This document shows positions 15,822 through 35,096 of a stretch of DNA of 64,000 nt, in pieces. Within the stretch, counting starts at the first letter, position 1, and each line of letters opens with the position of its first letter. Position numbers and translations under genes: made by a program. The stretch is from a virus (lineage: Duplodnaviria; Heunggongvirae; Uroviricota; Caudoviricetes): positions 34,885-98,884 of the IMG/VR virus record IMGVR_UViG_2724679293_000007; one strand, written 5' to 3'. Below the pieces are notes generated by a model. It searched no databases and was not told the origin of the DNA. It saw only the letters and a list, made by a program, of their open reading frames with translations.

Positions 15822-16177
15822 AGCACCACGTCCTGTGTGATAGTTATATCCCTGATACGAATGGATATTTTCAACTTATCAAAAGCATCTCCCTCGGCTA
15901 CTGACAAGCCAGAAATCGGTATGTCAGGTAAATCTACCGTCAGTTTTTGCAACAGCATTGCCTCAACCGCAATTTGAACATGCGACAAGTTGGTCGGTTC
16001 GTGTTTAAACTGCGGTAAAACATTGCCCCATGACGGATCTCCGTATACCTCACCCTGATAAGTGTTCAGCCACTCATATAAACGAGCGCCCCAGGCCTCC
16101 TCCTGGGACTCATACGTTTTTACGCCGGATAACTCCAGCGTCAGTAAAGGATCAATTTCGTTATTGTTGGCCATCAA
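15818..16177 (-). CDS. small baseplate protein
   Basis: 119-aa ORF overlapping the sit stop and the next start. Confidence 0.5.
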   Translation of the reverse strand: MMANNNEIDPLLTLELSGVKTYESQEEAWGARLYEWLNTYQGEVYGDPSWGNVLPQFKHEPTNLSHVQIAVEAMLLQKLTVDLPDIPISGLSVAEGDAFDKLKISIRIRDITITQDVVL

Positions 16178-19100
16178 TCAACTCTCGCGTAGTCATTCAT
16201 CAACGGATCATCAATTGACAGTGGCACCGTGCGCATAACGCCCGGTTGAGGCGTGCTGACCTTTACGACAGTTCCCTGGCCTTTCGCCGAGTCTTTAGTG
16301 TGCTCTTCAATCCTGGCAAGCAATGAGGTCATCTGCGCAAACAGCCGCTTCGTTTCACCATCAAGTGAAACGGTATTATCAGCCAACTGCATTGTCGGCT
16401 TGGCACCGGAGCCGCCAAGGTCACTAATAACCTGTCCGTCTATCTGCATACGACCGGTTGGTTGCTGCAAATCGTTGGCGGCAGTCGTCACCTGGGACGT
16501 GGAGGCTGGTTGAGGAGAATTATTTGAGCGCATTCCCCGGGCATTAATGAGTTTGTCATACAGCCCATCAATCCCCATTTGTGCACCGAGTTGGTCAAAG
16601 TAACTTGAGTTGTTTGCTACCGGACGTGCCTCTTCAACTGGCATAGGTGTATCAACATACACATTGCCAGCTGCCGTTGCGGTTCCCCTTCCTCGTGCAC
16701 GTTCTTCGAGGGTTCCCTGAACGACTTCCCGACGCATCCCCCGGCCATTCATGAATTTGTTGACCAGATCGTTAACGCCAACAGCATTGCCGATTTTGTC
16801 TACCAGACCGCCTTTCTCAAACGGGCTATCACCAGGGGTAAACGCCAGGCCAGTAGACTGATCGATAACGGCGTTATCAGGCAGTGGTCCCCTCACTCCA
16901 TATTGCGCCCCACCCTGTGCTCCTGCTCCAGGTGTATAGATTTCACCACCCAAATAGCGAGCACGATGAGTATTGACCTTGATCGCGTACTCACGGTTTT
17001 CTTTCGATAAGTCACCTGTGCCTTTTTTCCACTTATTGATAGTGCCAAACCCAGCGTTATATGCAGTGATGGCCTCGTTTAAGTCTCCATTGGCTTGCTT
17101 CAGATACTTGCTCATGAGAAGAGCCGCAGCTTCTGCCGATTTCACAGGATCAAATGCATCCGGTTCCGATATCCCTGTCTCTTTACGAGCAATACTCGTG
17201 AACTGGAACATCCCGAGTGCGCCACCACTTAACTTTCCATCTGGTGATCTTGTAAGCGGAGACTTTGCGTTAGGATCCCCTCCTGATTCAGTTGCAGCAA
17301 TCGCGTAAAGAGTGCCTTCTGGAAGACCATATTTATTCTCTAGTTCAGCAAAATATGGAGCCAACTTATCGAGATTTGCCTTACCTTCAGCGCCAAGACT
17401 TCCTACTTTTACATCCAAGTTGCCATTGTTGTAGGTATCCGCAGCTTTCTGAATATCATTCCTGGTTCCAGTAGTATTACGCGACGATGATGACGAGCTA
17501 TTTTGACCAATGGCTTTATCAATTTTCTGCAACGCGCGATTGCCCGTTTCTACGGCATTTGCATTGATAATCTGATTAGCAGTTTCTTTAACTGTTTTAT
17601 TGCTATCTTTCGCCGTATCTAAGGATGCATTTACAACACGAGTGACAATATTAGCCTTTTTAGGGGTATATTCAGTCTTAGGAGCATTGCCCTCCTGACG
17701 TTCTTTAGCAGGTGTTTTTAATTCAGGTGTAACCTCTTTCGCATCCGCTTTATTGACTAGCTTTGATGCAACCCAGGCCACAGGGGTGCTCTGAACAGCG
17801 GCATCAGCAACCTCACCTGAAAGCTCTTTTGCGGCACTCCATAGATTACTGCCAGCCTCTTTAATGTATTTCCCCGGGTTCTTAATGAAATCAATTGCAC
17901 TATCAATTGCATCACTGAAAACCTTTTTCAGGTTATCGACAGTAAAGAAGTCTTTGATGGCGTCTAATTTTTCGTTCAGACTCTTGGTTGTGTCACTGAA
18001 CCAGGCTGAAATAGCATCGCCAATCTTGGCTGTGTAATCGTTGAATGTTGTGGATATGGTGTCACCAAGGTTAGAAATGTATGTTTCTAAATTGGTAATC
18101 CCACTATCAATGGCCTGTGCAATACTTTCCGTCGAAAATGATTGCAACATATTGCCGATATCCTCAAATCCAAGTGATTTGAGAACGCCACCAATGGCAC
18201 TGCTAATACCAGATACCAGTCCTCCCATATCGAGAACGTTAGCCAGTGTATAAGCCGCTTTTTGCTGAAAAGATGGATCTTCCCCATCCTTAAGCCCAAA
18301 GGTCCGACGTTGTGCTTCTGTATCATTCCAACCGGTTACCGCATCATAGATACCTCCAACCACCGTGCCGACTAGCGGAATTGCGCGTAAAACCCCCTTT
18401 GCAAGTGCCTTAACACCTAGTTTCCCCAATCCCTTAGTTGCAAGTTTTCCGGCACCGCGAGTAGCCAATTCGCCAGCTTCTTTGGCAGCAGCTTTTTTCC
18501 CACCAAAGCCCAATAAGCTTGCAACTTTTTTTATACCTAAAGCGCCTAGTGCCATCGAGCCAACTTTCTTTAGTGCCCCACGGCCAAAAATGAGGGAAGC
18601 AATACCACCGGCCCCCTTCCCTAACAGGCTAAATAATTTGGACAGCAAGCCGCCCTTCTTTTTCCCGGTGTTTTTGGCTATCTGATCAAGGGCGCTGAGA
18701 ATCTTGTCATTGCCCTCTTTAATTTCGCTGGTCTGATCCTGAAGTTCCTGAACCGTCCGTTTTTGGGTGTTAACCTGAACGACATCGGCACTACTTTGCG
18801 ATTTACGCCTAAAAAAACCTTTTTTACGGCTGTTATCGTCATTGCCACGAATCACATCGGCAATAGACTTTCTGGCACCATTAAGCGATCCGCCAACTTC
18901 TTTTGATATCCCGCCAAGCTCTTTTCCCGCTGCCCACAATGGGCCAGCAACGGCATAACCTAAAGCATCGACGGCACGAGTCTCTGAAGGGTTACCTATA
19001 CCTTCAGCTACTTTTGACAGTTTTTTTAATAAACCTGATTCAGCATTTAGACGCTCATCATCCTCTTTGCGCCTGGTCTTTTCAGCGCGTTCAGCACGGG

Positions 19101-19602
19101 CATCTTCCGCTGCGGCCTTACTCCCTGACTTTCCAATAAAACGACCACGCGCATCGCGTTGGTTTTGGCTTTTTTGCGTACCGCCTTTTTGACCGAACAT
19201 TTCGCGGGCGTGTTCGGCTGCTTCGGTCCGTTGCGCCTTTACATCTTCTGTTATAGCCTTCCTGCCTCGTTTTTTACCCTTTCGCGTAGTTGATTTGGCC
19301 TGCGGTTCCTGTAGAGCAACATCCTCCTGAACTACACGAGGAACGTCCCCTAAATTAAGCCGTTTCATTGCCTCAACAATAGGGTCCACTGATGGCGCAT
19401 TGGCCACAAAGTCTGGCCGGGAATTTTCGATTGTGCGATTTAATGCCGACACACTGCGAGAGACAGGATCAACAGTTGCAACGCGTCCCCCTTTCAAATC
19501 TTCAACAGCTTCCCGGATACCTGCAAGCTCTTCCAGCTCTTTTGCGCTGGCGGTTTCAACTGTCCTTATAACATCGTCAATGTTGGCGTTTTTTCTTTCC
19601 AT
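16174..19602 (-). CDS. sit: tape-measure-type injection protein with lytic transglycosylase (SLT) domain, Sit-like
   Basis: 1142 aa; Gly/Ala/Lys-rich repeats; C-proximal SLT signature ...AIAATESGGDPNA...GALGMFQF...AYNAG... Confidence 0.85.
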   Translation of the reverse strand: MERKNANIDDVIRTVETASAKELEELAGIREAVEDLKGGRVATVDPVSRSVSALNRTIENSRPDFVANAPSVDPIVEAMKRLNLGDVPRVVQEDVALQEPQAKSTTRKGKKRGRKAITEDVKAQRTEAAEHAREMFGQKGGTQKSQNQRDARGRFIGKSGSKAAAEDARAERAEKTRRKEDDERLNAESGLLKKLSKVAEGIGNPSETRAVDALGYAVAGPLWAAGKELGGISKEVGGSLNGARKSIADVIRGNDDNSRKKGFFRRKSQSSADVVQVNTQKRTVQELQDQTSEIKEGNDKILSALDQIAKNTGKKKGGLLSKLFSLLGKGAGGIASLIFGRGALKKVGSMALGALGIKKVASLLGFGGKKAAAKEAGELATRGAGKLATKGLGKLGVKALAKGVLRAIPLVGTVVGGIYDAVTGWNDTEAQRRTFGLKDGEDPSFQQKAAYTLANVLDMGGLVSGISSAIGGVLKSLGFEDIGNMLQSFSTESIAQAIDSGITNLETYISNLGDTISTTFNDYTAKIGDAISAWFSDTTKSLNEKLDAIKDFFTVDNLKKVFSDAIDSAIDFIKNPGKYIKEAGSNLWSAAKELSGEVADAAVQSTPVAWVASKLVNKADAKEVTPELKTPAKERQEGNAPKTEYTPKKANIVTRVVNASLDTAKDSNKTVKETANQIINANAVETGNRALQKIDKAIGQNSSSSSSRNTTGTRNDIQKAADTYNNGNLDVKVGSLGAEGKANLDKLAPYFAELENKYGLPEGTLYAIAATESGGDPNAKSPLTRSPDGKLSGGALGMFQFTSIARKETGISEPDAFDPVKSAEAAALLMSKYLKQANGDLNEAITAYNAGFGTINKWKKGTGDLSKENREYAIKVNTHRARYLGGEIYTPGAGAQGGAQYGVRGPLPDNAVIDQSTGLAFTPGDSPFEKGGLVDKIGNAVGVNDLVNKFMNGRGMRREVVQGTLEERARGRGTATAAGNVYVDTPMPVEEARPVANNSSYFDQLGAQMGIDGLYDKLINARGMRSNNSPQPASTSQVTTAANDLQQPTGRMQIDGQVISDLGGSGAKPTMQLADNTVSLDGETKRLFAQMTSLLARIEEHTKDSAKGQGTVVKVSTPQPGVMRTVPLSIDDPLMNDYARVD

Positions 19603-21201: not shown

Positions 21202-21808
<607 letters not shown>

Positions 21809-21921
21809 GTTGTCATTTGTTACCGGTCAGTCTACACATTTCAGATGCTGCGTTAAAAAACCCAAGTACTTCAAGTAGCACATCGTCATCAACACCCAGC
21901 CCCAAGATACGGTGATAAAAT

Positions 21922-22989
21922 TCAAGCCTTAAGAGGCTTTGTGTATGTTCGTGTAATCCATCCAGTAATAAACTCGTCCCCTGATTTAACCTGCACGAAA
22001 AGCCATTGGCGATCTTTTTTATCTAAAACAGCCACTATAGTATTTTTGCCAATGCATTCAATCACCTCACTATTTATAGAAGGACTGACGTGTAATCTTA
22101 CGTTCTCACCAGTTATAAAACGAAAACCATTGAGATCTTCCCAACTAATTTCTTTGTTTTCTTTAATTAATTGTTGTTTTGATATTGGTTTATCCTCAAA
22201 CAGAGATATAAAATATGATTCTGCCTTGTGTATTCCCAGCAAGGTTTTCTCTTTTCCGTAATCAATAAAAGCACCAAACACAACTTGAGAAAATATAACC
22301 ATTAGTAACCATTGCAGTGGATAAGGAAGCTCTTTAAATGAATCAACAAACTTTGAGCTAGGTTTATTTAATCCTTTATTTTGAACATTACTTTTGGTGT
22401 GTGATGTTTCAGTAGCACCTTCAGCATAAGCCTGCGCAATAGATGAAATCCCCTGCTCTATTATTTGATGTAATGAAGCATTTCTTGTTCTAGCATAGTG
22501 ATCTAGTACTTTCTTTATGTCTTGGCTTACATCTGTTTTATAACTTGCACTTTGTTGTAATTCTTTAAGTATCGCTTGCATGTTATTTAAACCAGCTTGC
22601 TTATTAAGCACCTCAAGCTGTTTTCGTAATGGCATAGCTATTTCGGCCTGTTTCCTTAGCATTTGAATATATCTATTTGCGTCATGAGGGAAAAGAGCCT
22701 GAGTCTGTTTCTGTAAAATCGCGATATGTTCACGATACTTGCTGCCTATTCCAGCCAAGTTCGGCATACTAGCCAATTGTTTTCGAAGAGAGTTACTAAT
22801 TACAGCTTGTCTATTCAATCTTGTCATATTTTGAAAAGAATGTTTTTCTATTCCTAATTGTTTTTGCAAGATCGCTACGTGATCTTTGTATGATGGAATG
22901 AGCACTGACTGTTTATACAGTAACTTCAACTCATTAGAATTAGTAATTTTTGTCATATTATTCCATTTATATAATAGAATATTACGCAA
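21922..22989 (-). CDS. accessory bitopic protein: N-terminal ~50-aa tandem repeats, one TM helix, C-terminal SH3b-like domain; TTG start in track, true start uncertain
   Basis: AT-rich; repeats HVAILQKQ...LRKQ twice; hydrophobic PLQWLLMVIFSQVVFGAFI; C-terminal SH3-like strand pattern. Confidence 0.65.
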   Translation of the reverse strand: MRNILLYKWNNMTKITNSNELKLLYKQSVLIPSYKDHVAILQKQLGIEKHSFQNMTRLNRQAVISNSLRKQLASMPNLAGIGSKYREHIAILQKQTQALFPHDANRYIQMLRKQAEIAMPLRKQLEVLNKQAGLNNMQAILKELQQSASYKTDVSQDIKKVLDHYARTRNASLHQIIEQGISSIAQAYAEGATETSHTKSNVQNKGLNKPSSKFVDSFKELPYPLQWLLMVIFSQVVFGAFIDYGKEKTLLGIHKAESYFISLFEDKPISKQQLIKENKEISWEDLNGFRFITGENVRLHVSPSINSEVIECIGKNTIVAVLDKKDRQWLFVQVKSGDEFITGWITRTYTKPLKA

Positions 22990-23030
22990 CCAATGTTTTA
23001 TTGATTGCGTTAATCTTTAACACAGAAAGA

Positions 23031-23507
23031 TCATTTGCCTCGTTTAATACATCCATCCATTTTGGCTTGTTGATACAACTTACTTAGCCCAGAAAGAGGG
23101 AATGTAGCAATTTTTTCATTATCAACATAAGCATCAATCATATTAGCATTTGAATCTGCTGCATCTTGCCAAAAGGCATACCACCAAGAATCTCCAACCA
23201 TTGATCCAAGATTGCTAAAAGGATATTGCTCACCATCTATAGTTAATACTATTTTATTCTTGTCAGCATTATACTCTTTTTTATTATTCGACGAACTTAG
23301 CAACAAGCCTAAACTACCTGCACTATCTGGTGAACCATACATGAATCCCATATCACATAAAAAACTTATCTTATCACCATTATGATTATGGATTGTATAT
23401 TCTCTCCCCCCTCTCTCTTCAATTACATTCCATTGTAGAGGATCAATTTTTGCAAATGTTCCTGCTGAAACTAACGATACAAATAATAAAAACCATCTCA
23501 TATTCAT
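23031..23507 (-). CDS. accessory secreted/periplasmic protein with signal peptide
   Basis: N-terminus MNMRWFLLFVSLVSAGTFA; two Cys; AT-rich. Confidence 0.7.
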   Translation of the reverse strand: MNMRWFLLFVSLVSAGTFAKIDPLQWNVIEERGGREYTIHNHNGDKISFLCDMGFMYGSPDSAGSLGLLLSSSNNKKEYNADKNKIVLTIDGEQYPFSNLGSMVGDSWWYAFWQDAADSNANMIDAYVDNEKIATFPLSGLSKLYQQAKMDGCIKRGK

Positions 23508-23529
23508 TCTTTTCGCTTCTTATCTGTAA

Positions 23530-23880
23530 TTATTCTGCAATATCATTTGCCCATTGCACGGCAGCAAAATGAGTACCCAAACCACTCAGGAAAGCAATTA
23601 CCCCCAAAACAATACTTGCTGCTGTTGATTCAAACAAAGTACCAATACTATAGCCAATAGCTCCCCATACTAAGCTAAATACAATCATCAATGGTATTGC
23701 CAGAAATTTTATTCTTAAACTAAAAATCAGTCCAAGAAAAGAACCGCCAAAGGCCCACCATGATTTAGACATTAAACCTATCAGTATTGACAGAATTCCT
23801 ATTTCAATAAAGAGAATATTAGATTGCTCTTCATTGAATTTCGCATTTGTTACACCTTTACGAACATGTTCAGATGACAT
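23530..23880 (-). CDS. accessory small polytopic inner-membrane protein (~4 TM)
   Basis: 116 aa with four hydrophobic helices; first gene of the three-gene cassette. Confidence 0.65.
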   Translation of the reverse strand: MSSEHVRKGVTNAKFNEEQSNILFIEIGILSILIGLMSKSWWAFGGSFLGLIFSLRIKFLAIPLMIVFSLVWGAIGYSIGTLFESTAASIVLGVIAFLSGLGTHFAAVQWANDIAE

Positions 23881-24027
23881 GATTAACTATCTCCTGCCAC
23901 AGATAAAACGCCTTAAAATAACATTTTGTAGCATAAAGTTTCACCATGCAATGGTCAAAATCTTTGACCCATATCAATTAAACTCATACATTTTAGTTAC
24001 CAGGGAAATAATTTACATGGTTGCAAG

Positions 24028-24044
24028 TTGCTCTAATTATTTTA
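24028..24044 (+). promoter_or_regulatory. C1-operator-like site at the head of immI (14/17 match to ATTGCTCTAATAAATTT)
   Basis: GTTGCTCTAATTATTTT in the intergenic region between the cassette and icd/ant. Confidence 0.45.
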
Positions 24045-24170
24045 TTTTTTTAGCTTCATATGCTACATTAACTTGCTTGCGTGCTAATGCATTTTCGGTT
24101 TATCCTAAACAGGCATCTTAGTAAAACGGATGCCGGGATTGGAACCCCGGATAATGCAAAAGGCGACACA

Positions 24171-24192
24171 GACGCCAAAAGCGTCTTTTTTT
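24171..24192 (+). terminator. rho-independent terminator/attenuator in the immI leader
   Basis: gacgccaaaagcgtc followed by TTTTTTT. Confidence 0.45.
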
Positions 24193-24199
24193 GTGTCAT

Positions 24200-24340
24200 G
24201 CCATCGCACAGCCATACGTAGCACATAGCTCCGAGATCAATGGTAGTGCTGGCTGGGCTGCCGAAAGGCAGGCCGGTTCCCTTTTGCGCCGGTAGTTCCA
24301 ACCCAGTCAGTGCTACCGCCATTGAGATTGGAACCTCACG
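24200..24340 (+). ncRNA. immI leader with c4-type antisense repressor RNA candidate
   Basis: Non-coding leader upstream of icd with mutually complementary segments (gtagtgctggctggg ... cccagtcagtgctac), as expected for the c4 RNA and its target sites; exact ends not determinable here. Confidence 0.35.
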
Positions 24341-24377
24341 CGGTAGCTCCTTAAATTAGCAAAAGGAGGCTGCCATT

Positions 24378-24599
24378 GTGGCTACTATCCCTACCCCTAC
24401 TCATCCTGAATTTATCTGGCGCTTTTACTCCTGCCAAAAACACCACTATCACTTCGTTATCGCAGCAACAGAAGACGAAGCACGCTCTCAATTGCCTGAT
24501 GGCCCCTGCATTTTTACTGCCCGTTTTTCAACTAACTCGCGCAATTCACTTAGTTACTGGAACCTCCCCTTCTCTGCCGACGTTCAGGGGGGTTTATGA
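24378..24599 (+). CDS. icd: Icd-like small protein overlapping the ant start (GTG start)
   Basis: 73-aa ORF with AAGGAGG RBS; stop overlaps the ant ATG. Confidence 0.55.
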   Translation: MATIPTPTHPEFIWRFYSCQKHHYHFVIAATEDEARSQLPDGPCIFTARFSTNSRNSLSYWNLPFSADVQGGL

Positions 24600-33368: not shown

Positions 33369-35096
33369 TTACTCAGAGTCACCGGCATCAATCGTGTCGC
33401 CGCTTATGAAGTTAAGCCCGCCTTTTTTGGCCATTGTCAGCGTTACACGAGTGAAGTAATCAGCGCCGTTGCGTGGGTGCATATCGTTGATAGCCGAACC
33501 CCACAGTGTGGTACGGTTGACCAGCGCCGGAGTGGTCGGATGCTGGAACGGGATAGCCGGGACAGCATCACCAGTCACGAAGCCTGCTTTACCCGGATTT
33601 TCATCACGGACGTAGCACAGCACATCCATCGAGCTGAACTGAATGTTCTCTGTCGTTAAGTTCTTACAAATACCAGCAGGTACTTCGTACACTTTCACGT
33701 TACCGAACAGGGTACCGATGTAGTGAACATACGGAGTCTGGATATAGTCTTCGGCTGGCTGGAAGAAATCCTTCGGCAACTGTTTGAAGAAAGATGCTGC
33801 ATCAGCACCAGCAAACATCCCCATCGCACCAGAAGATTTAACGCGCTCAATAATGTCGCGATATACAGTCTGGAATTTGCCACGAATGATGGTTGCCCAT
33901 ACATCAAAGGACTGGTTAACCGGCAGAGCGATGTCAAAGGTGTCGGTCGCAAGAGTACGCCAGATCATGATGCGAAGACGCAGCATATCCTGTTCATGAG
34001 ACAGGTATTCCTTCAGGGTGCGGAACTGTAGGGAACCCAGGTCCAGACCAAATTCACGCTGTGCTTCATACGCCGCCTGTACCGTGTGCTCAGCCGCGAT
34101 AACGAACTGGCTTGGGAACAGGGTGTATTTCTTCATTTCGTGGTTGATCAGCGGGATCAGCTCAGGAGCGGCTTCAATATTGATTTCCGTCTCAATTGCG
34201 ATCTCAGTGCCTTTATCCGGCGCTTTGGAGAACGACAGGGCAATCTGACCAATGTTGTAGTTCAGAGAGCAGGTAACAGTGATTTGCTCACCAGCAGCAT
34301 TAGTAAACGAGTGAAGTAGGCTGCCGGAACCGTTATCAACAACAGACTTAATACGGTTAACGTAGATGTTAGTGCGACCTTTTCGGATTGGTACATTCTG
34401 GCCTTCGAAGTCTTCCATCTTGAAGGTTGCGGTTTTGCTGGTGCCATCGGAGCTTGCCACCAGCACATAGCGGCGGCGTAACTGGCTGTACACACCGACG
34501 GATTGCATGTCCAGAACATCACCAGCAGCATAAGAACCAAAAGAGGAACCTGCCACGTTAAAGACTTCATAGATGTCGGACTGGTCACGCGTAACCGGAA
34601 TGAAGGTACACGCATCAGCGGTAGCTGCCCCCAACTGAACAGGCAGGATCATCGCGAGGAATAAAGGCAGACGCATAACACCGTCAGAAACGCTCATCAT
34701 CTCTGCTGCGACGGATTCCAGCATCGCTTTATTAGTGGCATCCATGCTATTGCGGGTGGACTCAATCAGGCAGTTTTCCAGCGTCTGGTGGCAGGAGGCC
34801 AGAATTTCCGGACGCGGCATAGATTTATGTGCTGCGGCGTAGTCAGCCAGTGCACTTGCCCACGCGGTAGCAATTTGAGCGGTGGCATTATCAGAGATAC
34901 CCGCAAAAATTGGGTCTTTACGTGCAGCTTCAAGGATAGATGCGGCACGCGCGGCATCATCTTTGATGAATTGGTTATCAGTACCGAACTGTGCTGTACT
35001 TGCCCAGCCAAGAACGGCTTTAGAGCGTTTTGCGATATCTGCAATACGATTCTGGTATTCGCGTAAGTTACTCAAGTTACTCTTCCTTAAACACAA
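33369..35096 (-). CDS. major head protein (P1 gene 23 position); start codon uncertain (TTG in track)
   Basis: 575-aa ORF adjacent to parS as in P1; followed by a hairpin. Confidence 0.55.
   Translation of the reverse strand: MCLRKSNLSNLREYQNRIADIAKRSKAVLGWASTAQFGTDNQFIKDDAARAASILEAARKDPIFAGISDNATAQIATAWASALADYAAAHKSMPRPEILASCHQTLENCLIESTRNSMDATNKAMLESVAAEMMSVSDGVMRLPLFLAMILPVQLGAATADACTFIPVTRDQSDIYEVFNVAGSSFGSYAAGDVLDMQSVGVYSQLRRRYVLVASSDGTSKTATFKMEDFEGQNVPIRKGRTNIYVNRIKSVVDNGSGSLLHSFTNAAGEQITVTCSLNYNIGQIALSFSKAPDKGTEIAIETEINIEAAPELIPLINHEMKKYTLFPSQFVIAAEHTVQAAYEAQREFGLDLGSLQFRTLKEYLSHEQDMLRLRIMIWRTLATDTFDIALPVNQSFDVWATIIRGKFQTVYRDIIERVKSSGAMGMFAGADAASFFKQLPKDFFQPAEDYIQTPYVHYIGTLFGNVKVYEVPAGICKNLTTENIQFSSMDVLCYVRDENPGKAGFVTGDAVPAIPFQHPTTPALVNRTTLWGSAINDMHPRNGADYFTRVTLTMAKKGGLNFISGDTIDAGDSE

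Follow-up and report, generated by a model that had tools for sequence, protein, structure and literature searches.

An alternative cassette of predicted envelope genes at the sim position of a P1-like phage-plasmid

Introduction

The Sim system of phage P1 acts on superinfecting phage: SimC is secreted and blocks P1 infection after adsorption. What, then, is carried at the same position by a relative of P1 that lacks the sim genes? The stretch of DNA considered here (the window: 64,000 nucleotides, positions 34,885 to 98,884 of IMG/VR virus record IMGVR_UViG_2724679293_000007) belongs to a P1-like phage-plasmid and has at this position an AT-rich cassette of three genes. They encode a 116-amino-acid (aa) protein with four predicted transmembrane (TM) segments, a 158-aa secreted protein of the YfjT/YkfB family, and a TM protein that ends in a bacterial SH3 domain (the SH3 protein). 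The sim region of P1-like phage-plasmids is known to be variable and is low in guanine plus cytosine (GC), and the cassette is part of its accessory cargo. As judged by comparison with related elements, the cassette is a mosaic of three independently mobile envelope genes recombined at gene boundaries, and the role put forward, tentatively, as the most likely one is superinfection exclusion at the level of the envelope, expressed from the prophage.

A comparative study (PMC9603915) counts simC-simB-simA among eight low-GC regions that vary strongly between P1-like phage-plasmids, and the sim genes of P1 are non-essential (PMC10695390). The variability of this region has been described before, and the genes themselves occur in more than 100 sequenced replicons and fall into PHROGs families of unknown function. 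New are the absence of homology to Sim, a catalogue of the slot's architectures, the YfjT-like core with its link to the SH3 gene, a restricted TM-SH3b family with a hypervariable, predicted cytoplasmic region, and a reading of P1 simA as a truncated remnant.

A replaced segment between conserved P1 flanks

The backbone on both sides of the cassette is that of P1, with 97-98% identity in the left flank (pmgB, tub, pmgC) and the right flank (icd/ant1/ant2, kilA, repL). Homology to P1 ends at 21821, three bases beyond the annotated -22 box of LPsit, a late promoter, and comes back at 24405 inside icd (blastn breakpoints); in P1, the interval between the same flanks holds simC, simB, simA and the Oc4/c4 control region. 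The cassette likewise lies between pmgC/LPsit and Oc4/c4 and is oriented for transcription towards pmgC. An earlier reading of this DNA from its sequence alone (the sequence-only reading) had placed the block at the sim position and listed three co-directional minus-strand open reading frames (ORFs) in it, and both statements agree with the breakpoints and with the ORFs found. The segment and its genes are:

21822..24404, no strand assigned: whole segment without P1 homology, made up of the AT-rich cassette and a divergent immI (c4) region (blastn breakpoints against P1)
23530..23880, minus strand: first cassette gene, 116-aa predicted inner-membrane protein with four TM segments (ORF, hydropathy; WP_000093550; PHROG 15014)
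23031..23507, minus strand: 158-aa secreted (periplasmic) YfjT/YkfB-family protein (PF27224; WP_001057313; PHROG 3429)
21922..22956, minus strand: SH3 gene, 344-aa bitopic membrane protein (ATG at 22956, RefSeq/PGAP WP_097331730; PHROG 7086, E 3e-183)

GC content is 34% across 21800-24050 against 47% for the whole window, and is normal in the rightmost 380 bp of the swapped segment; the AT-rich block of the earlier reading is therefore real, but the swapped segment is larger and runs to 24404, taking in a c4/immI allele like that of phage D6. A low-GC, replaceable segment at simABC with conserved flanks is what is seen here, as in variable region 4 of PMC9603915. Megablast of 21800-24100 found no match in deposited phages, and direct or inverted repeats of transposon type were looked for at the cassette edges and not found. 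About 490 PLSDB plasmids have both flanks at a minimum of 95% identity, and the whole cassette is present in just 27 of them; among E. coli RefSeq replicons it occurs at full length in 38.

The proteins are not those of P1. In BLASTP comparisons of the three with SimA, SimB and SimC the best E value was 0.7, and a hidden Markov model (HMM) scan of the fetched loci found SimC, SimB and SimA in the P1 locus only, so that the earlier proposal of a locus different from sim holds; its placing of the products in the membrane and periplasm also agrees with the predictions, by which all three are envelope proteins. With P1 simABC the cassette shares the slot, the orientation, a similarly low GC content (33.6% for the P1 genes), exported or membrane products and the standing of dispensable accessory cargo. 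It differs in sequence, without detectable similarity, and in architecture (4-TM, YfjT fold, TM-SH3b).

At least seven gene sets in one slot

In many sister elements the slot holds a secreted protein of 164-215 aa, here called long SimA. The similarity of P1 SimA (52 aa) to this protein is confined to the first ~50 residues of the latter, at 90% identity. An HMM scan of all fetched loci, taken together with annotated records, distinguishes at least seven gene arrangements, given in the order immI to pmgC:

Architecture A: 4-TM / YfjT / SH3 (the window and five complete IMG/VR loci)
Architecture B: long SimA / YfjT / SH3 (twelve IMG/VR loci; the commonest SH3 arrangement)
Architecture C: long SimA / YfjT / SH3 with an opposed DUF4760 gene
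Architecture D: 4-TM / YfjT / DUF4760
Architecture E: long SimA / YfjT (phages Ro157c2YLVW and Cronobacter JK004; locus L010)
Architecture F: truncated SimA / SimB / SimC (P1)
Architecture G: Upf50.5 / Upf50.0 (P7)

The classic P1 sim locus is thus one of at least seven alternative gene sets. The recurrent core is the YfjT-like gene, which is the commonest slot resident across P1-like phages: by tblastn it is found in 182 PLSDB plasmids, with simC in 141 and the SH3 gene in 64, and it often stands without an SH3 gene (architectures D and E; ~118 plasmids). The 4-TM gene and long SimA are alternatives within the slot. Exchange points fall at gene boundaries, homology to architecture D starting at 23037, by the stop codon of the 158-aa gene. 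One coherent module of three genes, as the sequence-only reading had it, does not fit this pattern, in which the genes recombine independently and each is found without the others. The same reading had proposed a different module in the sim slot, and this stands as far as unlikeness to Sim is concerned but not as a plain foreign replacement, the YfjT-like gene being the commonest resident, JK004 and Ro157c2YLVW included; in JK004 this gene has 51% GC against 55% in the flank, only slightly lower.

The nearest relatives in gene content are the long-SimA and YfjT-like pairs (Ro157c2YLVW gp35/gp34, JK004 gene_14/gene_13 and many plasmids), which lie in the same slot, have a YfjT-like positional equivalent of 36-37% identity and in many elements are followed by an SH3 gene of the same family. 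The window differs from them in carrying an unrelated 4-TM gene in place of long SimA and a YfjT allele of a distinct lineage. P7 is another case of alternative envelope cargo in the same slot, with sequences unrelated to those of the cassette: upf50.0 encodes a DUF5384 secreted protein and upf50.5 a glycine-zipper lipoprotein. Across architectures, all slot occupants with a recognisable targeting signal are envelope proteins, including the P7 pair (a signal-peptide protein and a lipoprotein) and P1 SimA, SimB and SimC, each of which has a signal peptide at its N-terminus.

Several smaller observations concern the slot. The DUF4760 membrane-protein gene lies next to pmgC in opposite orientation (L006 2550-3443, plus strand; L007 2481-3443, plus strand; L031 6422-7336, minus strand), and a fragment of a YfjT-like gene beside it in L007 and L031 is a trace of past rearrangement. 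A 2.8-kb contig (L043, DXHF01000172.1) with long SimA / YfjT / SH3 / pmgC is filed under a 'Candidatus Paenibacillus intestinavium' metagenome-assembled genome; it almost certainly derives from an Escherichia phage-plasmid and was binned there in error. An insertion of mcr-1 in the sim slot was considered and rejected: pMCR_SCKP-LL83 carries mcr-1 in ant1.

Which genes belong together

Within the slot, the SH3 gene has a YfjT-like gene directly upstream in all 18 of the IMG/VR loci that include upstream sequence, and the same adjacency is found, by coordinates, in several PLSDB plasmids. The two genes occur together in three divergent allele pairs, in which SH3 proteins of 100, 68 and 62% identity to that of the window accompany YfjT-like proteins of 100, 26 and 27-29%, respectively. 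The two coding sequences overlap by 14 nt in L007. Outside the slot, no YfjT-like gene lies within 5 kb of the SH3 gene. These gene orders support a functional pairing of the YfjT and SH3 proteins, along with a looser network of 4-TM, SimA-like, YfjT and SH3 genes, and do not support an obligate three-gene system.

A further association was seen in an unrelated metagenomic contig (42% GC), where the gene for a 4-TM homologue of 66% identity follows, at 12 nt, that for a secreted protein with DUF4431 and a SimA-like domain (L015 439-1608, L016 2-955). This neighbourhood ties cassette members into an association network with sim-slot genes and connects the 4-TM and SimA-like families beyond the P1-like elements.

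SimA as a remnant of a longer gene

Long SimA and P1 simA were located as follows:

L007 5620-6138 (CP057476): long SimA
L017 1802-2449 (Ro157c2YLVW): long SimA
L018 1901-2470 (JK004): long SimA
L010 3372-3866: long SimA
L001 5105-5263: P1 simA

The long SimA gene usually precedes the YfjT-like gene. From the alignment, P1 simA looks like the truncated remnant of a longer gene, and the gene orders suggest that simB-simC replaced the rest of long simA together with the YfjT-like gene.

One part of long SimA has a counterpart elsewhere in the window. A motif of ~45 aa (…GMR..VQGTLEERARG.GT…) is common to long SimA of E. coli P1-like elements (residues ~122-170, L017 and L007) and to residues 939-981 of Sit, the injection transglycosylase/tape measure protein (window 16174-19602, minus strand), where it lies just past the SLT domain. 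The two are 49% identical (pairwise E 8e-9), and the JK004 homologue is without the motif. The motif might serve as a mimic of the injection protein in the periplasm, or be a scar of recombination.

The YfjT-family protein

The 158-aa protein has the signal peptide that had been noticed from the sequence (cleavage between MNMRWFLLFVSLVSAGTFA and K), and all full-length members of its family share it. In the family alignment C51 and C153 are conserved in at least 90% and W109 is invariant. Identity to K-12 YfjT is 28% (BLASTP, E 1e-10). PF27224 ('YfjT') is precomputed on the 99%-identical cluster representative of the protein and on its relatives, and PGAP names WP_001057313 a 'YfjT/YkfB family phage-associated protein'; the local Pfam and NCBIfam copies have no PF27224 model, and the assignment comes from the precomputed annotation, BLASTP and PGAP. 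A word-index search with the protein returned close copies only, while an exhaustive HMMER search among 1.84 billion proteins recovered the wider family of 21 clusters (50% identity).

The gene has a ratio of non-synonymous to synonymous substitution rates (dN/dS) of 0.21. An AlphaFold2 model of the protein reaches a predicted local distance difference test score (pLDDT) of 87; Foldseek of the model against the PDB gave nothing at E<=0.001, and against BFVD gave sequence homologues in jumbo Serratia phages only, one of them loosely called 'putative adhesin'. Sequence searches of the PDB with this protein, the SH3-family profile and the C-terminal 110 aa of the SH3 protein gave chance-level or generic helical-repeat matches only.

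Two loci of E. coli K-12, yfjT (in CP4-57) and ykfB (in CP4-6), encode PF27224 proteins in which the signal peptide, the cysteine pair and the W motif recur, and yfjT also follows small membrane and lipoprotein genes, ypjK and yfjS. The relation is distant, and neither YpjK nor YfjS is a relative of the 4-TM or the SH3 protein. Both yfjT and ykfB are uncharacterised members of the y-ome (PMC11551758). More distant homologues (~26% identity) are encoded by lytic jumbo phages of Serratia and Pectobacterium of ~275 kb (e.g. NC_048668 190265-190669), which indicates that the family is not confined to temperate elements.

The membrane-anchored SH3 protein

The maximal ORF of the SH3 gene, 21922..22989, gives 355 aa from a TTG, the length assigned to it at first. 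The 344 aa that start at the ATG at 22956 are the likelier product, because the TTG sits within a hairpin stem. The protein consists of an N-terminal region (residues 1-212), a TM segment (213-234), a linker and a C-terminal bacterial SH3 domain (~276-344), in accordance with the single TM helix and SH3b-like C-terminus already recognised. Residues 1-212 are helical, amphipathic and strongly basic, with a net charge of +14, and contain two repeats, YKDHVAILQKQL...LRKQL and YREHIAILQKQT...LRKQL (local alignment score 67); the repeats had been noticed before, and are ~40 aa long rather than ~50 aa. It is likely that the N-terminus lies inside the cell and the SH3 domain outside the inner membrane, because the large basic N-terminal region has no signal sequence.

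Against SH3_3 (PF08239) the protein scores 26 bits (E 1e-5; Pfam cut-off 27). The domain is accepted at the family level, PF08239.18 being precomputed on 46 of the 48 clusters of the family, including the identical protein. There is also weak similarity to the SH3 module of phage amidases (phrog_1794, E 0.008).

Conservation is very uneven along the protein. Over the whole gene dN/dS is 0.37; the N-terminal region taken separately gives 0.52 and the SH3 domain 0.15. Mean identity to the window protein across the family is 32% for the N-terminal region and 81% for the SH3 domain. The former is hypervariable in sequence, repeat type and length (proteins of 344-481 aa), the TM segment and linker are moderately conserved, and the SH3 domain is nearly invariant. 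Constraint of this kind fits a conserved periplasmic target, and the SH3 domain most likely binds peptidoglycan or another conserved envelope component.

The family is small: 48 clusters among 5.8 billion proteins. Its named members are all from Enterobacterales, chiefly Escherichia, Citrobacter and Salmonella with Pseudocitrobacter and Yersinia, and mostly on contigs of ~90-100 kb; neither megablast nor tblastn found a homologue in deposited phage genomes. The 344-aa allele is without ~45 N-terminal residues found in relatives of 389-394 aa.

The four-TM protein

The 116-aa protein matches PHROG 15014 (E 1e-75), a family of unknown function, and has no match in Pfam, NCBIfam or PADLOC. Its four hydrophobic segments by hydropathy bear out the four TM helices first counted, and the basic N-terminus and an RIK loop fit an N-in/C-in topology. 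Homologues of 58-72% identity occur in Salmonella, Vibrio metschnikovii and metagenomes, and the gene has a dN/dS of 0.08 (against the L006 allele). A 116-aa gene upstream of a YfjT homologue in Enterobacter and Serratia was rejected as a relative: there is no BLAST similarity, and the equal length is a coincidence.

What the cassette may do

The reading favoured here is that a lysogen would make these proteins to exclude superinfecting phage. An exclusion or defence role, as proposed in the sequence-only reading, is plausible, and so is its suggestion that the SH3 protein may be a sensor or blocker anchored to peptidoglycan. Transcription would come from a promoter of the cassette's own, for which there is one candidate:

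23930..23958, minus strand: candidate sigma-70 promoter (TTGACC-17-TATGCT), ~50 nt upstream of the 116-aa gene and ~70 nt from a C1 operator

The cassette would then be expressed independently of the late operon; it lies outside the late transcript, because LPsit is downstream of its genes. The core would be the secreted YfjT-family protein in the periplasm. The SH3 protein would keep its basic repeat region in the cytoplasm and project its conserved SH3b domain into the periplasm, bound to peptidoglycan or another envelope component, and the small 4-TM protein would fill the place that long secreted SimA has in sister elements. Together, the products would alter the inner membrane, periplasm and peptidoglycan such that a superinfecting phage is stopped after adsorption, at the step when the tail tip, with its transglycosylase (Sit in P1), has to get through the wall and deliver DNA. 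This would be the same stage as is blocked by P1 Sim and by the Imm and Spackle proteins of phage T4, which are a small membrane protein and a periplasmic inhibitor of tail lysozyme. The likeness to Imm/Spackle is one of concept only: a phage encodes a small multi-TM protein and a secreted periplasmic protein. It differs in that T4 is a lytic phage and the present element a temperate phage-plasmid with an additional TM-SH3b protein. In Pfam (E<=1) and PHROGs (E<=0.1) scans, the three proteins matched weak unrelated families or families of unknown function only, and no sequence homology to Imm or Spackle appeared.

Several results weigh against this reading. There is no homology link to any characterised exclusion or defence protein: PADLOC-DB v2, including the Zorya, Kiwa and Abi families, gave no match at E<=1 for any of the three, Pfam and NCBIfam scans found nothing convincing beyond SH3_3, and the PHROGs matched are all of 'unknown function'. 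Each cassette gene is also found alone, the 4-TM gene among metabolic genes in some cases, so that a joint mechanism is not required, and the SH3 gene elsewhere adjoins a darB homologue (Salmonella and Citrobacter elements) or umuDC (Yersinia). Members of the YfjT family are also chromosomal (K-12 CP4-57, Aeromonas, Enterobacter/Serratia) and present in lytic jumbo phages, which is odd for a P1-specific exclusion factor. The promoter scan found 8 promoter-like sites against 10.1 in shuffled sequence, not above chance, and the AT-rich DNA may be silenced by H-NS. For the full-length SH3 protein, an AlphaFold2 model built on a 27-sequence family alignment has a pLDDT of 41 and is unusable.

A real, if lesser, possibility is that the target is the host: the cassette would be a case of lysogenic conversion, in which altered wall or membrane physiology (stress tolerance, peptidoglycan remodelling, colonisation, colicin or serum resistance) benefits the lysogen and no phage is targeted. 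YfjT/YkfB homologues in cryptic prophages and chromosomes, with no obvious link to phage injection, would suit this, as would the 4-TM gene's company of metabolic genes and the occurrence of the cassette in isolates of many hosts and niches. Against it, P1 sim, the slot's one characterised occupant, targets superinfecting phage; the SH3 family is almost confined to P1-like elements (its 48 clusters, contigs of ~95 kb), where a general fitness factor should have spread more widely; and no virulence or resistance family was matched in the Pfam and NCBIfam scans.

The layout of the SH3 protein, which would join a periplasmic binding domain through a TM helix to a long cytoplasmic region that is basic, amphipathic and fast-evolving, would also suit a sensor. 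In such an abortive-infection scheme it would detect wall damage by a tail lysozyme and signal through its cytoplasmic repeats to the small 4-TM partner as a depolarising effector, like RexB or the Zorya anchor in concept; one Vibrio homologue of the 4-TM protein does adjoin an AAA_15/AAA_21 ATPase. The scheme is improbable, given that no PADLOC model, those of Zorya and Kiwa included, shows homology, that no enzymatic or effector domain was detected in Pfam, NCBIfam or PHROGs, and that SH3 and 4-TM genes are inconsistently linked, the commonest SH3 arrangement having long SimA instead.

It is similarly doubtful that the genes are helpers of the lytic cycle, for example by setting the time of lysis, by keeping progeny from re-adsorbing to debris or by helping the tail or Sit at the envelope. 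They are co-directional with the essential late operon pmgC-tub-pmgB-sit and immediately upstream of it, SH3b is a typical wall-binding module of phage lysis enzymes (compare the phrog_1794 match), and the long SimA of sister elements shares its motif with Sit. The position of LPsit, which leaves the genes outside the late transcript, tells against a lytic role, as do the lack of the SH3 gene in any deposited phage genome and a slot that is dispensable and wholly replaceable (simABC non-essential, seven architectures). Hitch-hiking or decaying DNA with no current function would account for an AT-rich block in a recombination hotspot, for products annotated only as hypothetical and for an SH3 allele shorter than its 389-394-aa relatives, but is very unlikely in view of clear purifying selection on all three genes and of ORFs that are intact in dozens of near-identical and divergent copies.

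Superinfection exclusion at the envelope remains the preferred role. A stronger version, in which the YfjT-like and TM-SH3b proteins with a 4-TM or long-SimA partner form a new envelope-level anti-phage system of P1-like phage-plasmids, is conceivable rather than probable. If it were true, wall penetration by the incoming tail-tip transglycosylase would be blocked or sensed, the cytoplasmic repeats would be evolving under conflict, and K-12 yfjT and ykfB would gain a role as prophage exclusion factors. Clinical and animal E. coli and Salmonella often contain P1-like phage-plasmids, which carry resistance genes. The content of the variable regions of these elements helps decide which phages and phage-plasmids coexist or superinfect, and the most frequent resident of this slot is a YfjT-family protein whose K-12 relatives await a function.

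Hairpins around the cassette

Three hairpins lie in or beside the cassette:

21775..21809, minus strand: perfect 11-bp inverted repeat of the P1 backbone (arms 21775-21785 and 21799-21809; free energy, dG, -22 kcal/mol, z -5.3)
22984..23010, minus strand: 11-bp stem-loop, a terminator-like site in the 74-nt spacer between the 158-aa and SH3 genes (dG -13.9, z -3.9)
21924..21939, minus strand: weak terminator-like hairpin (dG -7, z -2.4), overlapping the SH3 stop codon (21922-21924) and last codons

The first had been described, one base off, as separating the cassette from the tail operon. The hairpin is real, but it is part of the conserved LPsit region and no cassette border, because it is conserved in P1 (the same sequence but for one loop base) and overlaps the LPsit -10: its 5' arm is the annotated TAGAAT (21805-21800), and its 3' arm contains the pmgC Shine-Dalgarno GAGG. 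Read-through RNA from the sim slot would sequester the pmgC ribosome-binding site, and late transcripts starting in the loop would not. The hairpin possibly insulates the late tail genes from lysogenic transcription. The spacer stem-loop may be a partial terminator or a module junction, and homology to the DUF4760-type slot ends close to it, at ~23037.

The immI control region

The right end of the swapped segment holds the immI control features:

24027..24043, plus strand: C1 repressor operator at the immI promoter, next to the DNA upstream of the cassette (equivalent of Oc4, by alignment with that of P1 and P7)
24113..24323, plus strand: isrK-like leader (24113-24191) and C4 antisense RNA (24236-24323), at 58.5 and 76.7 bits in Rfam, both above the gathering scores

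Matches to the C1 operator number 8 in the window against 0.26 expected. A RefSeq 'ash family protein' ORF across the C4 RNA is probably spurious. The immI allele is ~60% identical to those of P1 and P7 and 88% to that of phage D6, and the same divergent allele (24027-24404) is also found in plasmids of slot architecture D, which suggests a third immI specificity that may travel with the 116-aa and 158-aa genes.

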